Below are positions 1 through 6,875 of a stretch of DNA of 64,000 nt, in pieces (the stretch's first letter is position 1; each line of letters starts with the position of its first letter). The notes beneath the pieces are model-generated. The model was not told where the DNA came from. It did not search any database and was given only the letters and a program-made list of their open reading frames with translations. The position numbers and the translations under genes were made by a program. The stretch comes from an uncultured Candidatus Saccharibacteria bacterium (lineage in GTDB: Bacteria; Patescibacteriota; Minisyncoccia; Phycocordibacterales; UBA2100): contig CAZWFX010000003.1 in the NCBI GenBank assembly GCA_964633425.1, positions 32,357-96,356 of the forward strand. Reading direction: 5' to 3'.

Positions 1-2
1 AT

Positions 3-188
3 GCCGACGGTATCGAAAAGGCGATTCGTGTCGGAGGTGATTCGGAAACCTATGCAGCGGTTGCGGGGGCACTTTTGGGTGCTCGGTTCGGCATTCACGA
101 CATCCCTGGTGCATGGCGCAAAGACATGATGGGTGTCGACGTGATGCTCGGCATTGCCGACGACCTGTACGAGATCGCTCACCGCTGA
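3..188 (+). CDS. ADP-ribosylglycohydrolase family protein, C-terminal part (5' end outside window)
   Basis: Frame 3 reads ADGIEKAIRVGGDSETYAAVAGALLGARFGIHDIPGAWRKD... The GGD(S/T)xT..A..GAL.GA.(F/Y)G..IP..W block is the C-terminal signature of the ARH/DraG family. Stop TGA at 186-188. There is no start codon inside the window. Confidence 0.7.
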   Translation, partial: ADGIEKAIRVGGDSETYAAVAGALLGARFGIHDIPGAWRKDMMGVDVMLGIADDLYEIAHR

Positions 189-196
189 GGTGGGTA

Positions 197-235
197 CTAA
201 AAAACGGCCGCCTTTCGAGGCGGCCGTGCTTTTAT
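197..235. terminator. bidirectional rho-independent terminator between the convergent ARH and NrtR-like genes
   Basis: Perfect 8-bp GC stem CGGCCGCC(205-212)-TTTCGA-GGCGGCCG(219-226), with an A-run on the 5' side and a T-rich tract on the 3' side. Confidence 0.7.
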
Positions 236-930
236 ATAATTTCAATCTCTTTGACCTTGTCGCTCGCAAACCGATACAGCTGCGCGGGCCGGAAGCGTCC
301 GCCGGTTCGCTTGCGCGGCAGTTCTTTGAGAATATCGAGCTTCAGGATTTTTTTACGGAAATTGCGCTTATCAAGTTCGTGACCGAGCGTAGCCTCGTAC
401 ATTTGTTCGAGCTCCGTCAGCGTGAACTCTTTCGGCATGAGCTTACCGATCAGTGTTGTGTAGGTCATGCGCGAATGTAGGCGAGTGAGTGCTACAGACA
501 GCATGTCGGTGTGATCGTATGCAAGCGTGACTTTCTTGCCGGCGGGGGCCCACCAGCAATCATCTGTGTCGGACTGTTCCGTGTGCGAGAGCGAGCTCCA
601 CGGAACATACGCGATGTAGCCCACGGCGACCACGCGCCCGCGCGGATCGCGATCGACTTGGCTGAATGTATAGAGCTGTTCCATGTACACCTTGTCGGGA
701 TCGACACATGCTTTTGCAGAGAGGTGACGGCGCGCGGCGTCTTCTGCGGTTTCTTTCGGATCAATAAGGCCGCCGGGGAATCCCTGTGAGTTTGCGAAGT
801 AGGGTGGTCGATTCACGGCAACGAGTCGCATATGAAGCTGACCGTCCTTGACGGTAAACAGCGTGACGTCGGTTGCGAGCACCGCAAAGCGCAGATGCTC
901 CGGAGAGGGAACGAATGTTCCGTTGGACAT
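232..930 (-). CDS. NrtR-like regulator: Nudix-fold domain with degenerate Nudix box plus C-terminal winged helix
   Basis: 232-aa ORF. The Nudix box region GLIDPKETAEDAARRHLSAKACV keeps G-x5-E-x7-R, but the REUxEE glutamates are replaced. The C-terminus (FTLTELEQMYEATLGHELDKRNFRKKILKL...) looks like the wHTH of NrtR-type ADP-ribose-responsive repressors. Confidence 0.7.
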   Translation of the reverse strand: MSNGTFVPSPEHLRFAVLATDVTLFTVKDGQLHMRLVAVNRPPYFANSQGFPGGLIDPKETAEDAARRHLSAKACVDPDKVYMEQLYTFSQVDRDPRGRVVAVGYIAYVPWSSLSHTEQSDTDDCWWAPAGKKVTLAYDHTDMLSVALTRLHSRMTYTTLIGKLMPKEFTLTELEQMYEATLGHELDKRNFRKKILKLDILKELPRKRTGGRFRPAQLYRFASDKVKEIEII

Positions 931-936
931 AGATAC

Positions 937-964
937 ACTGTACAGAACAAATAGTTATTGTCAA
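937..964 (-). promoter_or_regulatory. sigma70-type promoter positioned for a leaderless NrtR-like mRNA
   Basis: On the minus strand: TTGACA (964-959), a 16-nt spacer, TACAGT (942-937), 6 nt, then ATG (930-928). No Shine-Dalgarno sequence lies upstream of the ATG. Confidence 0.5.
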
Positions 965-999
965 ATATACACTTATCAACAGGTTATTTAGTGTAGTAT

Positions 1000-1149
1000 T
1001 GACACTATGTTAAACCGGGAATACTGTGCGAAGTAGGAGTAGGACATGTGTTCTCTGACATAGTGCGTACATATATTGACAGTGTCAGTTCAAAATGTGA
1101 CAGTTTCGCCGGTTTGCTACTTCGTTAGCACAAGGTCTTTGACAGTGTG
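1000..1149. promoter_or_regulatory. array of five TGACA-type repeats (candidate operators) in the divergent control region
   Basis: Copies are TGACACTATG(1000), TGACATAGTG(1056), TGACAGTGTC(1077), TGACAGTTTC(1098) and TGACAGTGTG(1140). The last four are spaced 21/21/42 bp. The 1077 copy is the perfect palindrome TGACA-G-TGTCA. Confidence 0.55.
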
Positions 1150-1165
1150 CTAGTGAATCTAAAGT
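1139..1165 (+). promoter_or_regulatory. candidate promoter of the three-gene operon
   Basis: TTGACA (1139-1144), 15 nt, TAAAGT (1160-1165), about 35 nt upstream of the ATG at 1203. The spacer is short, so this is tentative. Confidence 0.3.
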
Positions 1166-1202
1166 ACCTGAGACTGAGTTCAACCCAGAGGAGAACTACC
1201 AG

Positions 1203-2396
1203 ATGACGACCGAATCCAATGCCGCACCCGCGGTTGTGCCGCAGGCGTGGATCGACTACATCGGCCCGTTCGTTTCCGTGATCGGTAAGCCGATCGAGGA
1301 GGTGAATACGGCGCTCAGCGCAATCGTCGGGGACCCCGGCGAACAGGCGATCGCGCTCCTCAAGGACGCGAACCTGACTCCGGACGCCGCGATCAAGAGT
1401 GCGTTCCAGGGTATGCCGCTCGGCATTCTGAATCTCGCGATCACCAAGCTCCGTGCGGCACCTGTTGCCGCCACGCCGGTTTCGTTCGGCGGGCTCGATA
1501 TTCTGCCCGACGTGCCGACCGAGCAATCGTGGCTCTCGGCGCTCCGCGCAGGCGGGGCACTGAAGGTCAGTCAGGCGACGGTCACCTCTGCGATTCGTGC
1601 GACGCTCGCTCACCGCGCCGGTCTCTACGACCTGCCGGCGATCCTGGTCGAACGCATCGAGAAGTTCGCCGATGACAACGCCGAGCAAGTCGGCACCGAC
1701 TTCTTCGCGCTGCGCAAGCAGTTGCGCAAGAAGGAGTACGCCGAAGTGTTCGAGGCGATCGGCATCGACGGTCTCGACGGCAACTACGTCACCGACAAGC
1801 GCAAGAATGATCTGTTCGTCCGCATCGACGGCGACCTGTGGCCTGCCATCGTGTCCTTCCAGGGCACGCTGAAGGGCTGGGTCGACTCGTGGCAGACGCA
1901 GTCCAACAATCCCGGACTGATGATGCAGAACATGATGGCGATCATGTCGGGCGGCGTCGGCGCCGTTCCGCAGGCATTCATGATGCAGGCGCCGGATACC
2001 GGCGTGCTGCACGATGCGGCCGACGGCTTCAACGACGTGATCAACAAGGTCTTCGCCGGCACCCGCATGCCGATCGCCAGTGCGCTCGCGCACGAAGCGA
2101 CGCAGATCGTGAAGACGCTCGAGAATCCGGCACTGCCCGGATATATCGGTGCGGCCAATCGCGATCAGATGCTGCGTATGCTCGGCGTCGAAGTTGCGGC
2201 AACGTATCCGCGCATGGAGGTCAATCTGATCAAGTACGTGATGAGCGTGCTCAAGATCAAGGACCTCTCGGCCGGACCGGAAGAGCAGCAGTTCTTCGTC
2301 GCGCTCTCGATGCTGGGCAATTCGATCCCGTGGGATCAGCTCGGCCTCGGCAAGCGCAATCGTCCCGACACTGAGCGGCGCCCTCGCGCGCTGTAA
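1203..2396 (+). CDS. hypothetical protein (397 aa, helix-rich, Met/Gln-rich segment), no recognisable family
   Basis: Long ORF in a high-GC region. SD GAGGAG (1188-1193) lies 9 nt before the ATG. The opposite-strand 484-aa ORF is R-rich shadow noise. I recognise no catalytic or binding motif. Confidence 0.8.
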   Translation: MTTESNAAPAVVPQAWIDYIGPFVSVIGKPIEEVNTALSAIVGDPGEQAIALLKDANLTPDAAIKSAFQGMPLGILNLAITKLRAAPVAATPVSFGGLDILPDVPTEQSWLSALRAGGALKVSQATVTSAIRATLAHRAGLYDLPAILVERIEKFADDNAEQVGTDFFALRKQLRKKEYAEVFEAIGIDGLDGNYVTDKRKNDLFVRIDGDLWPAIVSFQGTLKGWVDSWQTQSNNPGLMMQNMMAIMSGGVGAVPQAFMMQAPDTGVLHDAADGFNDVINKVFAGTRMPIASALAHEATQIVKTLENPALPGYIGAANRDQMLRMLGVEVAATYPRMEVNLIKYVMSVLKIKDLSAGPEEQQFFVALSMLGNSIPWDQLGLGKRNRPDTERRPRAL

Positions 2397-2414
2397 CAGA
2401 ACGGACATCAATGG

Positions 2415-2440
2415 GAGGCGGCACCGTTCGGTGCCGCCTC
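2415..2440 (+). promoter_or_regulatory. strong intercistronic GC hairpin (possible attenuator or mRNA-stability element)
   Basis: Perfect 11-bp stem GAGGCGGCACC-GTTC-GGTGCCGCCTC, followed by GAATTCTTTG, which is only a weak U-tract. It lies between gene A and the pseudokinase gene. Confidence 0.6.
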
Positions 2441-2465
2441 GAATTCTTTGAAAAGGATTGCACCG

Positions 2466-3578
2466 ATGATGGATGCAGATCTTCTGCCCGTCTACGAACG
2501 CATCATGCAGGCCGCACGGCCTGAGGATGTGTTCGAAGAATTGTCGGTCGTGCTTCCGCCGCGTCTCATGGAAAAGCATCTGCAGCCCGAAATGGATGCA
2601 ATGCGCTCCGTGCTTGATGCGGACCGCTACTCGTCACTCGATGACAAGGAGGCGGCACGACTCGCCAAGCCGAAGCTCGAAGAGTTCTATCGGATGGCGC
2701 TCGAGCGCGCGGCCAAAGGCCTCTACGCGCCCGAGGACTACACGCCCTACGTTCCGACCGGCAACGGTCGGACGATCATCGTCGACGGCACGACATATAC
2801 GGTCGGTGAAAAGTTCCACGTGGGAGAGCATTCCGCTCTCTACAAGGGACGCATGGCGATCGATCAGGGAAGTGCGGGTGTCATTATTCGGATCGCGAAT
2901 GATCCGGGTACCAACCCCTACGTTCTCAACGAGATCGGCATGCTCGATCAACTGCATCGTGTCGACGTGGGATACTGGCGTCACATTCCGTTCATGCTCG
3001 GCCGCTTTTCGGCGGGCGATCGTATCGGTCTTGTGACGCGCTACTTCTCAGGTCACACACTCACCGAGGTGCGCGCAAACAAACTGCATCGCGATGGTCT
3101 CGACCAGCGCCATGTGGTGTGGGTGCTCGACAGAATGCTCGGGCTCATGTGGTACTACCACGAGCTCGGCATCGTGCACGGTCGGATCGAACCGGAGAGA
3201 ATCCGTGTTCGGCCGTACAACCACAATGCGCTCCTTACCGGCTGGGGACACGCGGTCTTCAAGCCGGCGATCACCGGACAGAAGCTTGCTTCTGTCGGCG
3301 GAATATTCGAAGCCCCGGAAATCGGGGATTCGGGTGCCGTCGGTCCGTGGACCGACATCTACAGTCTCGGCAAAACGCTCATCTGGCTCATCGGCGGCGA
3401 TCCCGCCACCAATGAAATGCCCGATCGCGTCGAACCGAAACTGCGACAGTTTCTGGCGAACATGGTGTGGAAGAGCCCCAAGGCTCGACCGCACAATGCC
3501 CGTCAGCTCTACGACGCTCAAAACAGGTTGAAAGACACCCTGTGGGAGCGGCGATTCGTCCACATGCCCATGGCATAA
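2466..3578 (+). CDS. protein-kinase-fold protein, predicted pseudokinase, with helical J-domain-like N-terminus
   Basis: Kinase C-lobe signatures are kept: FEAPE (APE) and TDIYSLGKTLIWLIGG. The catalytic positions read GVIIRIA (Lys->Arg), HGRIEPERI (HRDxKxxN lost) and GWG (DFG lost). ATG at 2466 follows AAGGA; the ORF track offers a TTG at 2448. Confidence 0.75.
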   Translation: MMDADLLPVYERIMQAARPEDVFEELSVVLPPRLMEKHLQPEMDAMRSVLDADRYSSLDDKEAARLAKPKLEEFYRMALERAAKGLYAPEDYTPYVPTGNGRTIIVDGTTYTVGEKFHVGEHSALYKGRMAIDQGSAGVIIRIANDPGTNPYVLNEIGMLDQLHRVDVGYWRHIPFMLGRFSAGDRIGLVTRYFSGHTLTEVRANKLHRDGLDQRHVVWVLDRMLGLMWYYHELGIVHGRIEPERIRVRPYNHNALLTGWGHAVFKPAITGQKLASVGGIFEAPEIGDSGAVGPWTDIYSLGKTLIWLIGGDPATNEMPDRVEPKLRQFLANMVWKSPKARPHNARQLYDAQNRLKDTLWERRFVHMPMA

Positions 3579-3593
3579 CAAGGGAGACTACAC

Positions 3594-5033
3594 GTGAAGA
3601 CATCAAGGATCAGTTCTCGCGCCGACGCTGAAGTCGCACTCACCAATGTGCGCTCCAGCGCGACCGCGTTCTCGCATAGCGAAGCGATGACGCGCTCCGG
3701 CGTCGGACGGTGTCACCCGAATCTCAACCCGAAGGGTGTGGTTCGCGAGTGCCTCGATACGAGGCAGATGCCGTTCGTCACGCCGATCGCAATCGGCATG
3801 GATATCACGAAGTCGCGCGGCAACGATGCACGAATCGTGTACGAACAGACGATGCCGTTTTTGGGCTCGCTGTTCATGTCGGGCGCCGTCACCGATCCGC
3901 AGATTCTGTTTGCGGGTATCGGCGACGCGACCGTCGACACGGCGCCGCTCCAGGTGGGGCAGTTCGAGTCCGATGACCGCATGGACAAGGATCTCGAGCG
4001 TATGTGGCTCGAGGGCGGCGGCGGCGGAACAGGCCAGGAGTCGTACGAGCTGTTTGCGTATCTGCTCGCTCGCAAGACCAAGATCGACGCGATCGACAAG
4101 CGCGGCAAGAAGGGCTACTGCTTCTTCACTGCCGACGAAGCGCCGTATCCGTTCGTGAAGAAGACCGAAGTCGAGACCGTTTTCGGCGACAAGCTGAAGA
4201 AGGACATCCCGACGCCGGCGATCTTCGCGGAGCTGCAGAAGAAGTTCCGCACGTTCCTGGTCTATCCGGGCAAGCCGATGGCCGAGCGGCAGACCGACAT
4301 CGACGCCGAGATCCGTCAGCGCTTGCTGAAGGCCGGCGGCCGATTCGAGAACTGCTCGATCCGGGCGACGCTGATCTGGAACAGCTTCACCGACCTCGAT
4401 CTGCACGTCGTCACGCCGGACCGCGACCACATCTACTACGGCGATCGCACCTCCAGGTGCGGCGGCACGCTCGATGTGGATCGCAATGCGACCGGTCGCG
4501 AGACCCGCGAGCCGGTGGAAAATATCCGCTGGCCCAAGGGCACCGCGAAGCCGGGCAAGTATCGCGTCTACGTCCAGAACTTCGCCGAGCACGAACGCGA
4601 CGGCAAGAATACGCCGTTCAAGGTCGAGCTCGACCTCGACGGAAAGATCCAGACCTTCGAGGGTGTCATGAAGGCCGGCACCACCAAGGGGTCGAGTGAC
4701 AAAACTGCGTTCGAGTTCGACTACGTGCCGGAAGGCATGCAGCAGGCGAACGCGCAGGGTCGCGAGGCCTACGCCGACGAGACCATCCTCGGCGAGTGGC
4801 GCACGTGCATTCCGGACGGCCACATCATCCGGCTGACGGATGCAAAGTGGACGACCGAAGCCATGATCGGCGTCATGGGTATCCAGAGCGGAAAGAAGAC
4901 ACTCAGGCAGGTCCTTGCGGACATGCACGAACGTGCCGTCGATCCGAAGGGTATCAAGGACGTCGAGCTCGCGCTCAAGCCGTTCGCCGCGCAGGCGGTG
5001 ATCGACGAAGTCGGCGAAGAAGCATTCACTTGA
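3594..5033 (+). CDS. vWA domain protein fused to YfaP/DUF2135-like domain plus extra C-terminal domain
   Basis: GTG start after GGGAG. MIDAS-like residues: GMDITKS ... GGGGGTGQESYE ... FFTADE. The later segment LIWNSFTDLDLHVVTPDRDHIYYGDRTSRCGGTLDVDRNA...EPVENIRW...GKYRVYVQNF matches the DUF2135 pattern (LDLHV..P.G..I.Y....GG.L..D). Confidence 0.75.
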   Translation: MKTSRISSRADAEVALTNVRSSATAFSHSEAMTRSGVGRCHPNLNPKGVVRECLDTRQMPFVTPIAIGMDITKSRGNDARIVYEQTMPFLGSLFMSGAVTDPQILFAGIGDATVDTAPLQVGQFESDDRMDKDLERMWLEGGGGGTGQESYELFAYLLARKTKIDAIDKRGKKGYCFFTADEAPYPFVKKTEVETVFGDKLKKDIPTPAIFAELQKKFRTFLVYPGKPMAERQTDIDAEIRQRLLKAGGRFENCSIRATLIWNSFTDLDLHVVTPDRDHIYYGDRTSRCGGTLDVDRNATGRETREPVENIRWPKGTAKPGKYRVYVQNFAEHERDGKNTPFKVELDLDGKIQTFEGVMKAGTTKGSSDKTAFEFDYVPEGMQQANAQGREAYADETILGEWRTCIPDGHIIRLTDAKWTTEAMIGVMGIQSGKKTLRQVLADMHERAVDPKGIKDVELALKPFAAQAVIDEVGEEAFT

Positions 5034-5060
5034 CACGCAGTCAATACAGTCGCACATTAC

Positions 5061-5098
5061 GGGGAGCGCCTTTCGGGGCGCTCCTTTGCTTTTGATCC
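5061..5098 (+). terminator. rho-independent terminator after the three-gene operon
   Basis: GGAGCGCC(5063-5070)-TTTCGG-GGCGCTCC(5077-5084), followed by TTTGCTTTTG. Confidence 0.75.
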
Positions 5099-5117
5099 TT
5101 TACAGGAGGGAATAGAA

Positions 5118-6461
5118 ATGAAAAAGCACGCAACGATCGTCGTGGATCTCGGATTCGGCGATGCGGGCAAAGGCACCATCGTCGATCACGTCGCGCGACG
5201 CGGCGGATACGCATCCGTCGTTCGATTCAATGGGGGCGGTCAGGCTGCACACAATGTGGTCCTGCCCGACGGCCGACACCATACGTTCCGTCAGTTCGGC
5301 AGTGCCACGTTCGTGCCGGGGATCCGGACGCATCTCTCGCGCTTCATGCTCGTCGATCCGTTCGAACTCATTCACGAAGCGAATCTCCTGGTGGACGCCG
5401 GCGTTCGTGATCCGCTTGCGCGGCACTCGATCGACGAGCATGCGCTCGTCGTTGCTCCTCATAGCAAGAATGCCAATCGCGTGCGCGAAGCCCGTCGTGG
5501 AAACGGCAGGCACGGCACGTGTGCAATGGGTATCGGCGAGACGATGGACATGTCGATCAAACATCCGGAGATGGCCATCCGTGCGCGCGACCTGCTCGAT
5601 CTGAGCGTAGTCACTCGCAAGTTGAACCGCATCGCGGAGTATGTTGCGGTCGAATTCAAGGACGATCCGCTCTACAAGGAGCTGGAAAATACTCCGGCCG
5701 CGAGTCGCACTGGTGCGTGGTTCGCAGATGCGCCGCCGAGCGAGTGGGCAGGAATGCTCCACGAAATCGGAAAACGCATCACGATCGTCGATGACAAACA
5801 TCTGTGGCGCATCGCGCGCAGCGGAAACTTGCTGTTCGAAGGTTCGCAGGGAGTTTTGCTCGACGAATGGCGCGGATTTCATCCGTATACCACGTGGTCG
5901 ACAACGACTGCAGAGAATGCTCGAACCTTGCTTCAGGAAGCAGGCTACGAGTATTCAACGGAGACGATCGGCGTCCTGCGCGCGTTTCATACGCGTCATG
6001 GCGAAGGTCCGTTCCCGACGGAAAATGCGACGCTCACGAAACTGCTACCCGATAGTCACAACGACAACATCGGTCCGCAGGGAGTGTTTCGTGTCGGCTG
6101 GTTTGATGCGGTGCTCGCACAGTACGCGCTTGATGTATGCGGCGGCGTTGATTCGCTTGCGATCACACATCTCGATCGCTTCGACGCACTGGCTGATCCG
6201 CAGATCTGCCTCGGATACAAATCTGCAAACGGTGCGTTTGCGCGAATTCCGGTGAATCCGGTCAAGGAAGATCTTGTTGCGCAGGCAGAGATCACGAAGT
6301 TGGTCGCGCGTGCGCAACCGCTGTACCAACCCGCGCGCCTGGTGGGCGATCCCTATGCCAGGATGATCGCAGACATGGTTTCGACACCGGTCTCGATAAC
6401 GTCGTACGGGCCGACCTCGGCGGACAAGCGAGTCCTCGGGAGGCGCGTTCGCGCAGCGTAA
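5118..6461 (+). CDS. adenylosuccinate synthetase (PurA) family ligase, divergent paralog
   Basis: Family motifs are present: P-loop GDAGKGTIVD (cf. GDEGKGK), GGGQAAHNV (cf. GGxNAGHT), GTCAMGIGET, HGEGPFPTE, THLD and SYGPTSADK. The Asp-binding loop reads NIGPQGVFRVGW instead of GxTTGRxRRxGW. A strong SD, AGGAGGG, precedes the start. Confidence 0.8.
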   Translation: MKKHATIVVDLGFGDAGKGTIVDHVARRGGYASVVRFNGGGQAAHNVVLPDGRHHTFRQFGSATFVPGIRTHLSRFMLVDPFELIHEANLLVDAGVRDPLARHSIDEHALVVAPHSKNANRVREARRGNGRHGTCAMGIGETMDMSIKHPEMAIRARDLLDLSVVTRKLNRIAEYVAVEFKDDPLYKELENTPAASRTGAWFADAPPSEWAGMLHEIGKRITIVDDKHLWRIARSGNLLFEGSQGVLLDEWRGFHPYTTWSTTTAENARTLLQEAGYEYSTETIGVLRAFHTRHGEGPFPTENATLTKLLPDSHNDNIGPQGVFRVGWFDAVLAQYALDVCGGVDSLAITHLDRFDALADPQICLGYKSANGAFARIPVNPVKEDLVAQAEITKLVARAQPLYQPARLVGDPYARMIADMVSTPVSITSYGPTSADKRVLGRRVRAA

Positions 6462-6474
6462 GTTCTTTGAGACT

Positions 6475-6510
6475 CAGCCTTCGGCTCACGCCGAAGGCTG
6501 TTCTTTTTTA
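6475..6510 (+). terminator. rho-independent terminator
   Basis: CAGCCTTCGG-CTCACG-CCGAAGGCTG, followed by TTCTTTTTTA. Confidence 0.8.
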
Positions 6511-6512
6511 TG

Positions 6513-6518
6513 TAAGAT
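6513..6518 (+). promoter_or_regulatory. -10-like hexamer placed for a leaderless TfoX-like mRNA
   Basis: TAAGAT, then 6 nt, then ATG (6525). No SD is present. Confidence 0.4.
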
Positions 6519-6524
6519 GTACCG

Positions 6525-6875
6525 ATGGCAACGCAGCCCGAAACAATGGAATTTATTTTGGAAAAACTTGGCGACAACAAAGTCTTTACGTCGCGACGTA
6601 TGTTCGGTGAATATGCACTGTACGCGAATACGAAGCCGGTCGCATTTGTCTGCGACGATCTGCTGTACGTAAAGATTCTGCCGGAAAGCGCCGCACTAGA
6701 GGATGTGTGCGAAAAGGGCCACGCATACCCGGGCTCAAAGCTCTATTACATTGTGGAGGAATCGCAGCTCTCCTCGCTTGAGGACTTGCCGCAGCTCTTG
6801 ATCGACATGGCAAAATCTATCCCGGCAAAGAAAAAGAAAGCCAAAAAGACTGCGCATACACGTTCGACTAAATAA
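6525..6875 (+). CDS. TfoX N-terminal domain protein with Lys-rich tail
   Basis: RRMFGEYALYANTKPVAFVCDDLLYVKI matches the TfoX_N pattern (MFG.Y.LY..g..fa.i.dd.LYlK). Confidence 0.65.
   Translation: MATQPETMEFILEKLGDNKVFTSRRMFGEYALYANTKPVAFVCDDLLYVKILPESAALEDVCEKGHAYPGSKLYYIVEESQLSSLEDLPQLLIDMAKSIPAKKKKAKKTAHTRSTK

Follow-up and report, generated by a model that had tools for sequence, protein, structure and literature searches.

A probable NrtR-type divergent control region with tandem promoters ahead of a four-gene cassette in a Candidatus Saccharibacteria genome

The window analysed here, a 64 kb stretch of a Candidatus Saccharibacteria (Patescibacteria) genome, contains an nrtR-like gene and a cassette of four genes that are oriented divergently (Table 1). 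The spacer between them, running from the nrtR start codon (complement of 928-930) to the ATG at 1203, occupies positions 931-1202; its GC content is 0.38-0.44, compared with approximately 0.6 for the flanking genes. Both its length of 272 bp and the count of 19 G+C on the line 961-1020 are as given in an earlier, sequence-only reading of the locus, which had described it as AT-rich. The GGAG of the ribosome-binding site is kept among orthologues, and a near-identical strain (L001) differs from the window at six positions (1011, 1048, 1133, 1163, 1167 and 1172), none of which falls in a box, a promoter hexamer, a TGACA copy or a hairpin arm described below. To our knowledge, regulation in the Patescibacteria (candidate phyla radiation) is almost unstudied.

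The leftward gene had been taken to be NrtR-like, in agreement with the matches of its product to the NrtR winged-helix family PF21906 (E = 1e-24), AraR_C (3e-13) and NUDIX (PF00293; 1.6e-8) in Pfam. Against the NCBIfam model 'ADPR responsive transcriptional repressor' (NF050029) the protein scores 141.7 bits, under the equivalog cut-off of 400, and by this measure it is a family-level relative of that protein and not an equivalog. Relatives in the PDB are AraR (5bs6; E = 1.6e-28) and the NrtR of Shewanella (3gz5/3gz6; E = 2.6e-27), 3GZ6 reportedly being the structure of the latter bound to DNA. The Nudix box, as read from the sequence, is G-x5-E-x7-R-H-L-S-A-K, and the catalytic REUxEE glutamates are therefore missing.

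Among the cassette proteins, the first and third could not be assigned to a family by Pfam, NCBIfam or PADLOC, and the second matched no more than a generic kinase fold. The first protein has over 190 homologues. A structural model of it (pLDDT 72.9) had no fold match in the PDB (best E = 0.22), and a vWA-like N-terminal domain was found in the third through a structure model and fold search. The cassette adjoins nrtR or NAD-salvage genes in loci L090, L091, L093, L096 and L104.

Table 1. Features of the nrtR-cassette locus, in window coordinates
Feature	Position	Strand	Description
nrtR-like gene	232..930	-	232 aa; degenerate Nudix domain and C-terminal NrtR winged helix
nrtR promoter	937..964	-	predicted; -35 TTGACA (964..959), 16-bp spacer, -10 TACAGT (942..937)
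NrtR box A, TTATTGTCAAATATACACTTA	955..975	.	21-bp palindrome, GT-N7-AC core; overlaps nrtR -35; 26.4 bits
NrtR box B, TTAGTGTAGTATTGACACTAT	988..1008	.	21-bp palindrome, GT-N7-AC core; right half is copy 1; 26.4 bits
Predicted promoter P1	999..1027	+	-35 TTGACA (999-1004, inside box B), 17-bp spacer, -10 TACTGT (1022-1027)
Copy 1 decamer, TGACACTATG	1000	+	
TTCTCTGACA element (copy 2)	1051..1060	+	24 bp upstream of P2 -35
Copy 2 decamer, TGACATAGTG	1056	+	
Predicted promoter P2	1076..1104	+	-35 TTGACA (1076-1081, copy 3), TGT (1096-1098), -10 GACAGT (1099-1104, copy 4)
Copy 3 decamer, TGACAGTGTC	1077	+	
Copy 4 decamer, TGACAGTTTC	1098	+	
Leader inverted repeat TGCTA/TAGCA	1115-1119 / 1126-1130	+	
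Leader inverted repeat TAGCACA/TGTGCTA	1126-1132 / 1146-1152	+	
TCTTTGACA (copy 5), T-rich leader element	1136..1144	+	60 bp past start of P2 -35
Copy 5 decamer, TGACAGTGTG	1140	+	
Ribosome-binding site, AGAGGAGA	1187..1194	+	8 nt ahead of ATG 1203; read from sequence
Cassette, whole	1203..6461	+	four genes; predicted target of the spacer
Cassette gene 1	1203-2396	+	all-alpha protein
Cassette gene 2	2448-3578	+	kinase-like protein
Cassette gene 3	3594-5033	+	vWA plus beta-sandwich protein
Cassette gene 4	5118-6461	+	diverged PurA-like protein

The spacer is rich in a repeated word. The sequence-only reading had listed five TGACA-led decamers on the forward strand (copies 1-5), the last four spaced by 21, 21 and 42 bp, with a perfect palindrome, TGACAGTGTCA, at 1077-1087 and three TTGACA hexamers at 999, 1076 and 1139; all of these strings, coordinates and spacings agree with the sequence, and a further TTGACA lies on the minus strand at 964..959. 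Such clustering of TGACA words exceeds chance, with at least five forward-strand TGACA arising in two of 5000 dinucleotide-preserving shuffles and at least four TTGACA, counting both strands, in none of 5000. Just 11 TTGACA are present in the whole 64 kb window, four of them inside the 272 bp spacer, and the perfect hexamer is absent from the window's other intergenic regions. For four of five random positions to share the same residue modulo 21 has a probability of 2.4e-4, or 0.007 when periods of 10, 11 and 21 are all allowed. That the repeats are a random product of an AT-rich spacer gains something from the marginal result obtained once post-hoc choice of word is allowed for, as some 5-mer occurs at least five times in 378 of 5000 shuffles (7.6%), but it is rendered extremely improbable by the four TTGACA, by the phasing modulo 21, by the recurrence of the promoter geometries described below across distant loci and by the invariance of the TGACA of copies 1-3 across four orthologues (the window, L001, L002 and L096).

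Two sites of the kind bound by NrtR, boxes A and B, are present in the spacer, each with symmetry at six of ten pairs when counted from the box sequences. In a scan of the 64 kb with a weight matrix made from 38 sites in the nrtR upstream regions of other metagenomic loci, which is partly circular in that the training sites were picked by GT-N7-AC and palindromy, the training loci themselves being independent of the excluded window, the boxes score 26.4 bits each and the next best site 8.8 bits. Box B matches TAGTGT-N7-ACACTA without mismatch, and the clade consensus, TTAGTGTATAATATACACTAA, is fully palindromic, corresponding to TwAGTGT-N7-ACACTwA. The form TTAGTGT-N7-ACACTAA recurs upstream of nrtR homologues in independent metagenome loci; in a control for upstream enrichment that used the fixed, strict word GTGT-N7-ACAC, of 77 loci, 36 carried it in the 200 bp upstream, a density of 2.68 per kb versus 0.19 per kb elsewhere and a 14-fold excess. 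TwAGTGT-N7-ACACTwA offers a testable operator consensus for a large NrtR clade, whose members run to thousands (6371 homologues at E <= 1e-20).

The two boxes differ in their distribution. In every close relative, with or without the cassette, box A is unchanged or almost unchanged. Of the 11 other cassette loci, 10 have an equivalent of box B (13-28 bits) ahead of the cassette, among them L002, L017, L028, L091, L093, L095, L096, L098 and L101; L095, L098 and L101 have no adjoining nrtR gene. A point against an NrtR-type control region is that box B is missing from the closest cassette-less relatives (L005-L008). Measured between centres, the boxes are separated by 33 bp in four loci (the window, L002, L017 and L096) and by 34 bp in L091; candidate GT-N7-AC palindromes in L014 and L016 are likewise separated by 33 bp. 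Boxes A and B are the likely binding sites of the regulator. Further boxes occur in related loci upstream of nadM-Nudix and ADP-ribosylglycohydrolase genes, and the boxes across these loci form a coherent predicted NAD/ADP-ribose regulon. A link between nrtR and draG is known in Streptomyces. Copy 5 was also considered as a third NrtR box (1142-1162), and was rejected on account of its score of 0.6 bits, its broken AC core and its lack of conservation in L002 and L096.

Much of this arrangement has precedent. NrtR operators are 21 bp palindromes with a GT-N7-AC core that overlap promoter elements and from which ADP-ribose releases the protein (Rodionov et al. 2008, NAR 36:2047; PMC2330246), and boxes A and B share their length, palindromy, core, position beside nrtR and overlap with promoter elements. 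In Shewanella, operators are found in tandem (PMC2330246), the two nearby sites at prs-nadV resembling boxes A and B. The order nrtR<#>target operon is that of other NrtR divergons, and the partners in related loci, namely nadV, nadM-Nudix, prs and ADP-ribosylglycohydrolase, are those of the NrtR NAD regulon. Similarly, in Mycobacterium smegmatis an auto-repressing NrtR acts on a palindrome between nrtR and the divergent nadABC operon (Gao et al. 2019, eLife 8:e51603; PMC6800001), the same placement as seen here, although that site is a single 23 bp palindrome, GTTTTCGA-N7-TCGAAAAC, whereas the Saccharibacteria spacer has two 21 bp boxes of other sequence 33 bp apart. Relative to the operators of the NAD regulon, the present case differs in its host, a member of the Patescibacteria (Saccharibacteria), in the clade consensus and the TTGACA -35 built into each box, and in its predicted main target, the four-gene cassette, where the known operators serve recognised NAD genes. 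In the literature library searched, nothing relevant connected NrtR with the Patescibacteria or with vWA/PurA-type proteins. The boxes suggest that the cassette shares a regulon with nadV, nadM-Nudix, prs and ADP-ribosylglycohydrolase, which would be a lead for linking it to NAD or ADP-ribose metabolism or signalling.

The TTGACA of each box is perfect and occupies box positions 12-17. That of box A is the -35 of the predicted nrtR promoter, the sole promoter in the spacer to pass a consensus scan (10 of 12 matches), which is kept in L002, L005, L006, L008, L009 and L096. An inverted core, ACACTGT (935-941), within the palindrome CTGTACAG (938-945) had been described as overlapping the nrtR -10 and as part of the operator; the overlap is real, the sequence lying in the conserved minus-strand TACAGT, but the role of operator half-site does not hold. 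The hexamer of box B belongs to P1, which fails a strict consensus scan because its -10 matches the consensus at just three of six positions. Of 12 non-redundant regions upstream of the cassette, 11 have the arrangement TTGACA-17-TAnnnT, with the TTGACA inside an NrtR box in nine, one of the two matches in L017 doing so and L104 being without a box.

From the presence, scores, conservation and geometry of these motifs, we infer how the region may operate. P1 would drive the rightward cassette, and an NrtR dimer on each box would block access of the sigma factor to both -35 elements; box-bound NrtR would for this reason keep both the cassette and nrtR itself repressed. Release of the protein would follow when its degenerate Nudix domain binds ADP-ribose or a related product of NAD breakdown. 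The comparative evidence favours the earlier suggestion that the adjacent NrtR-like protein controls both transcription units from the spacer.

A second predicted promoter, P2, accounts for copies 3 and 4. It conforms to the extended -10 form of sigma-70 promoters (TTGACA, 17 +/- 1 bp, TG at -15/-14, A2 and T6), and fails the strict sigma-70 consensus scan. The P2 geometry, consisting of TTGACA, a 17/18-bp spacer ending in TGn, and nAnnnT, is present in eight of 12 loci, compared with none or one of 12 in 1000 shuffles; what the -10 hexamers (GACAGT, GAAAGT, AAATGT, CAGTAT and others) have in common is A2 and T6 alone, and they depend on the TG extension. With P2 as the anchor for comparing the leaders, at least seven of eight loci have the same base throughout the TTGACA, at the TG, at A2 and at T6, and also share two T at +63/+64 and a G at about +36, the P2 elements supplying most of the best-conserved columns. 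The palindrome at 1077-1087 within the P2 region is not conserved, being changed to TGACACCCTCT in L002 and TGACAATACCG in L096. P2 has the likeness of known extended -10 (TGn) and tandem promoters, with its perfect -35, 17-bp spacer ending in TG-N, weak -10 retaining A2 and T6, and location downstream of P1, which is predicted to be repressor-controlled. As no NrtR box covers it, P2 could give NrtR-independent basal transcription.

We know of essentially no characterisation of promoter rules in the Patescibacteria, and because the window's other intergenic regions lack TTGACA, describing the extra hexamers as ordinary -35 elements has no backing from this genome's other promoters. Two further candidates were rejected: a third promoter (P3) starting from the TTGACA at 1139, which has only a 15-bp spacer to TAAAGT and no consistent -10 in orthologues, and the use of copy 2 as a -35 with a -10 overlapping copy 3, for which the -10 of L002 would be GACACC, without T6.

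These elements bear directly on the proposal that the TGACA(G)TGT units at 1056, 1077, 1098 and 1140, together with those at 1000 and 935, are cooperative operators for NrtR dimers. Helically phased arrays and looping systems are well known from lambda CI, LacI, GalR and AraC, and the repeated words of the spacer resemble them in falling at whole helical turns (21, 42 and 84 bp). Their clustering and phasing modulo 21 are not random, AGTGT, the five-base core of the NrtR half-site, is present in copies 3 and 5, and the step from copy 2 to copy 3 keeps its 21 bp in L002, where the full spacing is 21/21/41, and measures 20 bp in L096. The NrtR matrix, however, gives scores under 0 bits for copies 2-4 and 0.6 bits for copy 5, against 26.4 for each box, and the GT-N7-AC core found in both boxes is missing from the 21-mers centred on copies 2-5 (assessed partly by eye), as is a partner half-site at the N7 distance. 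The units have only TGACA in common. Unlike those of known arrays, they do not form a single motif, have not been conserved together and mismatch the recognition sequence of the candidate regulator. In L002 and L096 neither the decamers nor the palindrome at 1077 are kept, the TGACA of copy 4 becoming TGAAA or TAAAT in orthologues and that of copy 5 TTACA. The step from copy 3 to copy 4 is explained by the -35/-10 geometry of P2 that recurs in eight of 12 related loci, and known NrtR sites are 21-bp palindromes rather than direct repeats 21 bp apart. TGACAGTGT, allowing one mismatch, has 13 matches in the 64 kb window (four in the spacer) against 10 expected, a chance rate outside the spacer. 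An array of NrtR operators is very improbable, and only copy 1, as the right half of the palindrome at 988-1008, coincides with a site of NrtR type.

The apparent array is instead a composite of half of box B, the P2 -35, the P2 extended -10 and two flanking elements. The excess of TGACA has two causes: several strong -35 hexamers follow one another in the spacer, and the -35 consensus TTGACA shares its 'ACA' with the NrtR half-site ACACT. Judged on the comparative evidence, the spacer is probably a standard NrtR-type divergent control region, in which operators at boxes A and B overlie back-to-back promoters and P2 lies downstream. What had appeared an unusual phased operator would consequently be a standard NrtR divergon with tandem promoters, a result useful mainly as a correction.

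The two flanking elements, copies 2 and 5, are T-rich and hold a fairly constant position relative to P2 in the sequences compared, at -24 and +60 from the start of the -35. The TGACA of copy 2 is invariant in the window, L001, L002 and L096, and TCTTTGMCA-like words are found 20-27 bp upstream of the P2 -35 in seven of eight loci. Near the offset of copy 5, within a few bp, a CTTTT/CTTTG word is present in all eight P2-anchored loci; its distance from P2 is broadly kept in these, the conserved feature being the T-run. Likewise, CTTTGACA with at most one mismatch is found in eight of nine distant leaders, compared with a maximum of six over 200 shuffles. Such positional conservation in eight divergent Patescibacteria loci hints at a second cis-regulatory module, made up of the T-rich TGACA-type elements on either side of the P2 -35, some 24 bp before it and 60 bp after it, albeit one whose existence is doubtful.

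One form that such a module might take is a pair of sites (TCTYTGACA; 1052-1060 and 1136-1144) through which a second DNA-binding protein activates or loops P2. The sites flank P2 at a distance of 84 bp, equal to eight helical turns, and the recurrence of the upstream words, of CTTTT/CTTTG at about +60 and of CTTTGACA at a level above all 200 shuffles would fit this arrangement. It is nonetheless quite improbable, since the neighbouring genes include no candidate regulator, the first of the cassette proteins being all-alpha and without a structural match, the downstream element of distant loci is a T-run only and not TGACA, and the spacing of the two elements differs between loci, within a range of 80 to 96 bp. 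Moreover, TCTTTGACA is at chance frequency in the 64 kb window (15 matches versus 13 expected), and neither this search nor that with TGACAGTGT indicates a regulon within the window.

Alternatively, the downstream copies might be conserved as an RNA element of the leader, either a hairpin presenting CUUUGACAG or an attenuator, and not as DNA sites. The 5' leader is long, at about 170 nt from the predicted start of P1 and 90 nt from that of P2, and the inverted repeat 1126-1132/1146-1152 encloses copy 5 and is kept in four orthologues, while other loci have hairpins before the T-run at a similar distance from P2. RNAalifold finds a consensus hairpin in the window, L001, L002 and L096, but one with no compensatory pair changes. 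Folding is modestly better than in shuffles for the leaders of L093 and L096 (z = -2.4 and -1.9), but single-sequence folding of the window is unexceptional (z = -0.5 and -0.9), L098 and L090 fold worse than shuffles, and the z-scores of the P1 and P2 leaders and five orthologous leaders are inconsistent overall, ranging from +1.2 to -2.4. An Rfam search of 800-1400 with E up to 1 found no match, and a scan of the spacer found no terminator. Folding thus points neither towards nor away from a leader RNA element, and on balance this explanation appears unlikely. Were a second module to exist in either form, paired operator or leader RNA, in these reduced-genome bacteria it would control a widely conserved four-gene cassette of the ADP-ribose/NAD regulon.

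The window matches a metagenome-assembled genome of Candidatus Saccharibacteria. In it, the spacer between nrtR and the divergent four-gene cassette is AT-rich (GC content 0.38-0.44, against ~0.6 in the flanking genes) and is read here as an NrtR divergon with predicted operators and promoters, an arrangement for which no description in this phylum was found in the literature searched. NrtR sites are 21-bp palindromes with a GT-N7-AC core that overlap promoter elements, are found in tandem in Shewanella, and are vacated by NrtR in the presence of ADP-ribose (Rodionov et al. 2008, PMC2330246). Among 80 metagenome loci encoding NrtR relatives, TTAGTGT-N7-ACACTAA was recurrent upstream of the corresponding genes. 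In 36 of 77 loci the fixed word GTGT-N7-ACAC was present in the 200 bp preceding nrtR, where its density was 14 times that in the remainder of those loci. A matrix trained on 38 sites, all from other loci, was scanned over the 64-kb window and identified two boxes in the spacer, A and B, the next-best match reaching 8.8 bits. Box A is kept in all close relatives, and the cassette is preceded by box B or its equivalent in the compared loci L002, L017, L028, L091, L093, L095, L096, L098 and L101, including some where nrtR is not adjacent. Box A and box B lie 33 bp apart, centre to centre, in the window and in L002, L017 and L096, and L091 has a spacing of 34 bp; the candidate palindromes of L014 and L016 show the 33-bp distance as well.

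Features of the nrtR-cassette region and of NrtR boxes at related loci (window positions unless a locus is named)
Feature	Position	Strand	Details
ADP-ribosylglycohydrolase gene	1-187		convergent with nrtR
Hairpin	204-227		10-bp GC-rich stem, ACGGCCGCC-TTCG-AGGCGGCCGT; T-runs on both strands
nrtR	232-930	-	Nudix and NrtR winged-helix domains
Spacer	931-1202		272 bp
ACACTGT/CTGTACAG	935-945		sequence check
Box A	955-975		TTATTGTCAAATATACACTTA; 26.4 bits
Box B	988-1008		TTAGTGTAGTATTGACACTAT; 26.4 bits
TTGACA	964..959	-	sequence check
TTGACA	999, 1076, 1139	+	sequence check
TGACA-led decamers, copies 1-5	1000, 1056, 1077, 1098, 1140 (starts)	+	sequence check
Perfect palindrome	1077-1087		TGACAGTGTCA; sequence check
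Predicted nrtR promoter			-35 TTGACA inside box A, 16 bp, TACAGT
Predicted promoter P1		rightward	-35 TTGACA inside box B, 17 bp, TACTGT
Inverted repeat	1126-1132 with 1146-1152		encloses copy 5
Cassette	1203-6461		four genes
Cassette protein 1			397 aa, all-alpha; no match in family and fold searches (no Pfam, NCBIfam or PADLOC family)
Cassette protein 2			protein-kinase-like, weak
Cassette protein 3			479 aa; vWA-like N-terminal domain and beta-sandwich; no Pfam, NCBIfam or PADLOC family
Cassette protein 4			diverged adenylosuccinate-synthetase-like (PurA-like); 182 bits against an equivalog cut-off of 402
Hairpin	6462-6510		AGCCTTCGGC...GCCGAAGGCT, then TTCTTTTTT; directly 3' of the PurA-like gene, 5' of tfoX_N
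tfoX_N	6525-6875		
NrtR boxes upstream of ADP-ribosylglycohydrolase gene	L096 763-783, 828-848		22-30 bits
NrtR boxes upstream of nadM-like Nudix gene	L091 2802-2822, 2867-2887; L093 2943-2963		22-30 bits

Both boxes carry an outward-pointing TTGACA at box positions 12-17. The predicted nrtR promoter is the sole promoter in the spacer to pass a strict scan, and of 12 non-redundant regions upstream of the cassette, 11 contain the TTGACA-17-TAnnnT pattern of P1. NrtR dimers at boxes A and B would cover both outward-facing -35 hexamers, potentially repressing both nrtR and P1, with ADP-ribose or a related NAD product expected to lift this repression; a second predicted rightward promoter, P2, lies outside any box and may provide basal transcription. 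The sequence comparison shows directly what the motifs are, how they score, how far they are conserved, how they are arranged and in which regulon context they lie.

The sequence-only reading had instead proposed a helically phased array of TGACA(G)TGT operators bound by the NrtR-like protein. The strings and coordinates it reported are all correct, and the clustering of TGACA and TTGACA in the spacer is not random: at least five TGACA on the + strand arose in 2 of 5000 dinucleotide-preserving shuffles and four TTGACA in none of 5000, while four of the 11 TTGACA in the whole window fall within the spacer. A residue modulo 21 common to four of five random positions has p ~2.4e-4. The TGACA count is weakened as a statistic because the word was freely chosen, some 5-mer reaching five copies in 7.6% of shuffles. 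As NrtR operators, however, copies 2-4 score below 0 bits and copy 5 only 0.6 bits, against 26.4 for each of boxes A and B. The choice of the NrtR-like protein as regulator was right, and this protein probably controls both transcription units; the operator assigned to it was wrong.

The 21-bp step between copies 3 and 4 appears instead to be promoter geometry. Copy 3 provides a TTGACA; 14 nt further on comes TGT and then a hexamer whose second base is A and whose sixth is T (window, GACAGT; L002, GAAAGT; L096, AAATGT). This extended -10 arrangement was found in eight of 12 non-redundant loci, compared with 0-1 of 12 in 1000 shuffles. When the eight leaders were stacked without gaps on this TTGACA, the columns with the same base in at least seven were the TTGACA itself, the TG, A2, T6, a G at ~+36 and two T at +63/+64. 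This recurrence and conservation argue that copies 3 and 4 represent the -35 and -10 of P2.

The window was aligned with L001, a near-identical strain, and with its orthologues L002 and L096. In this alignment TGACA is unchanged in copies 1-3 but replaced by TGAAA or TAAAT in copy 4 and by TTACA in copy 5, and the 1077 palindrome is lost. Copies 2 and 5 appear to belong to other conserved elements: for copy 2 (TTCTCTGACA), seven of eight loci have a TCTTTGMCA-like word 20-27 bp ahead of the P2 -35, and copy 5 (TCTTTGACA), at P2 +60, has a CTTTT or CTTTG word near that offset in all eight. With at most one mismatch, CTTTGACA occurs in eight of nine distant leaders, more than in any of 200 shuffles. 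All six differences between the window and L001 fall outside the assigned boxes, promoter hexamers and other elements, which fits with constraint on these. At the RNA level, an Rfam search returned no match for the leader/spacer region, no terminator was found in the spacer, and folding energies were unremarkable in the window leader and inconsistent among loci. The inverted repeat around copy 5 is kept in four orthologues without compensatory changes.

The putative regulator is homologous to solved NrtR/AraR structures. Read from its sequence, the protein's Nudix box is R-H-L-S-A-K, where the standard Nudix signature of catalytic enzymes has R-E-U-x-E-E, which suggests a sensory rather than an enzymatic role. 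The hairpin between nrtR and the ADP-ribosylglycohydrolase gene resembles a bidirectional terminator.

The cassette is found across Patescibacteria (the window, L002, L090, L091, L093, L095, L096, L098-L101 and L104), repeatedly adjoining nrtR, nadM-Nudix, nadV (NAMPT), prs or ADP-ribosylglycohydrolase genes, with NrtR boxes upstream. Further boxes precede ADP-ribosylglycohydrolase and nadM-like genes at other loci, and none beyond A and B was found in 8.7 kb of L001. This matches the expected NAD/ADP-ribose regulon, of which the cassette would be an added member. Genes of unknown role termed nrtX-nrtY are listed as NrtR-regulated, with a divergent nrtR, for Proteus, Hahella, Streptomyces, Kineococcus and Frankia (Rodionov et al., PMC2330246 Table 1). 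Relatives of cassette protein 3 also occur outside the phylum, in Kofleriaceae, Deltaproteobacteria and Schekmanbacteria.

The three loci with the closest nrtR relatives, at 84-90% identity (L005 599-702, L006 413-477, L007 744-808), lack both the cassette and box B when compared with window 931-6524, and in them nrtR is directly divergent from the tfoX_N orthologue with only 60-100 bp between. As nrtR directly faces tfoX_N in these strains, the cassette is an indel between the two genes, and was probably lost there, since the nrtR-cassette layout is widespread. The hairpin following the PurA-like gene is probably the cassette terminator. At the more distant locus L017 (1136-2284, minus strand), the kinase-like gene is itself divergent from nrtR, with no protein-1 gene between, and its product has, by eye, an N-terminal J-domain-like 'KIVHPDV' segment that the kinase-like protein of the window lacks.
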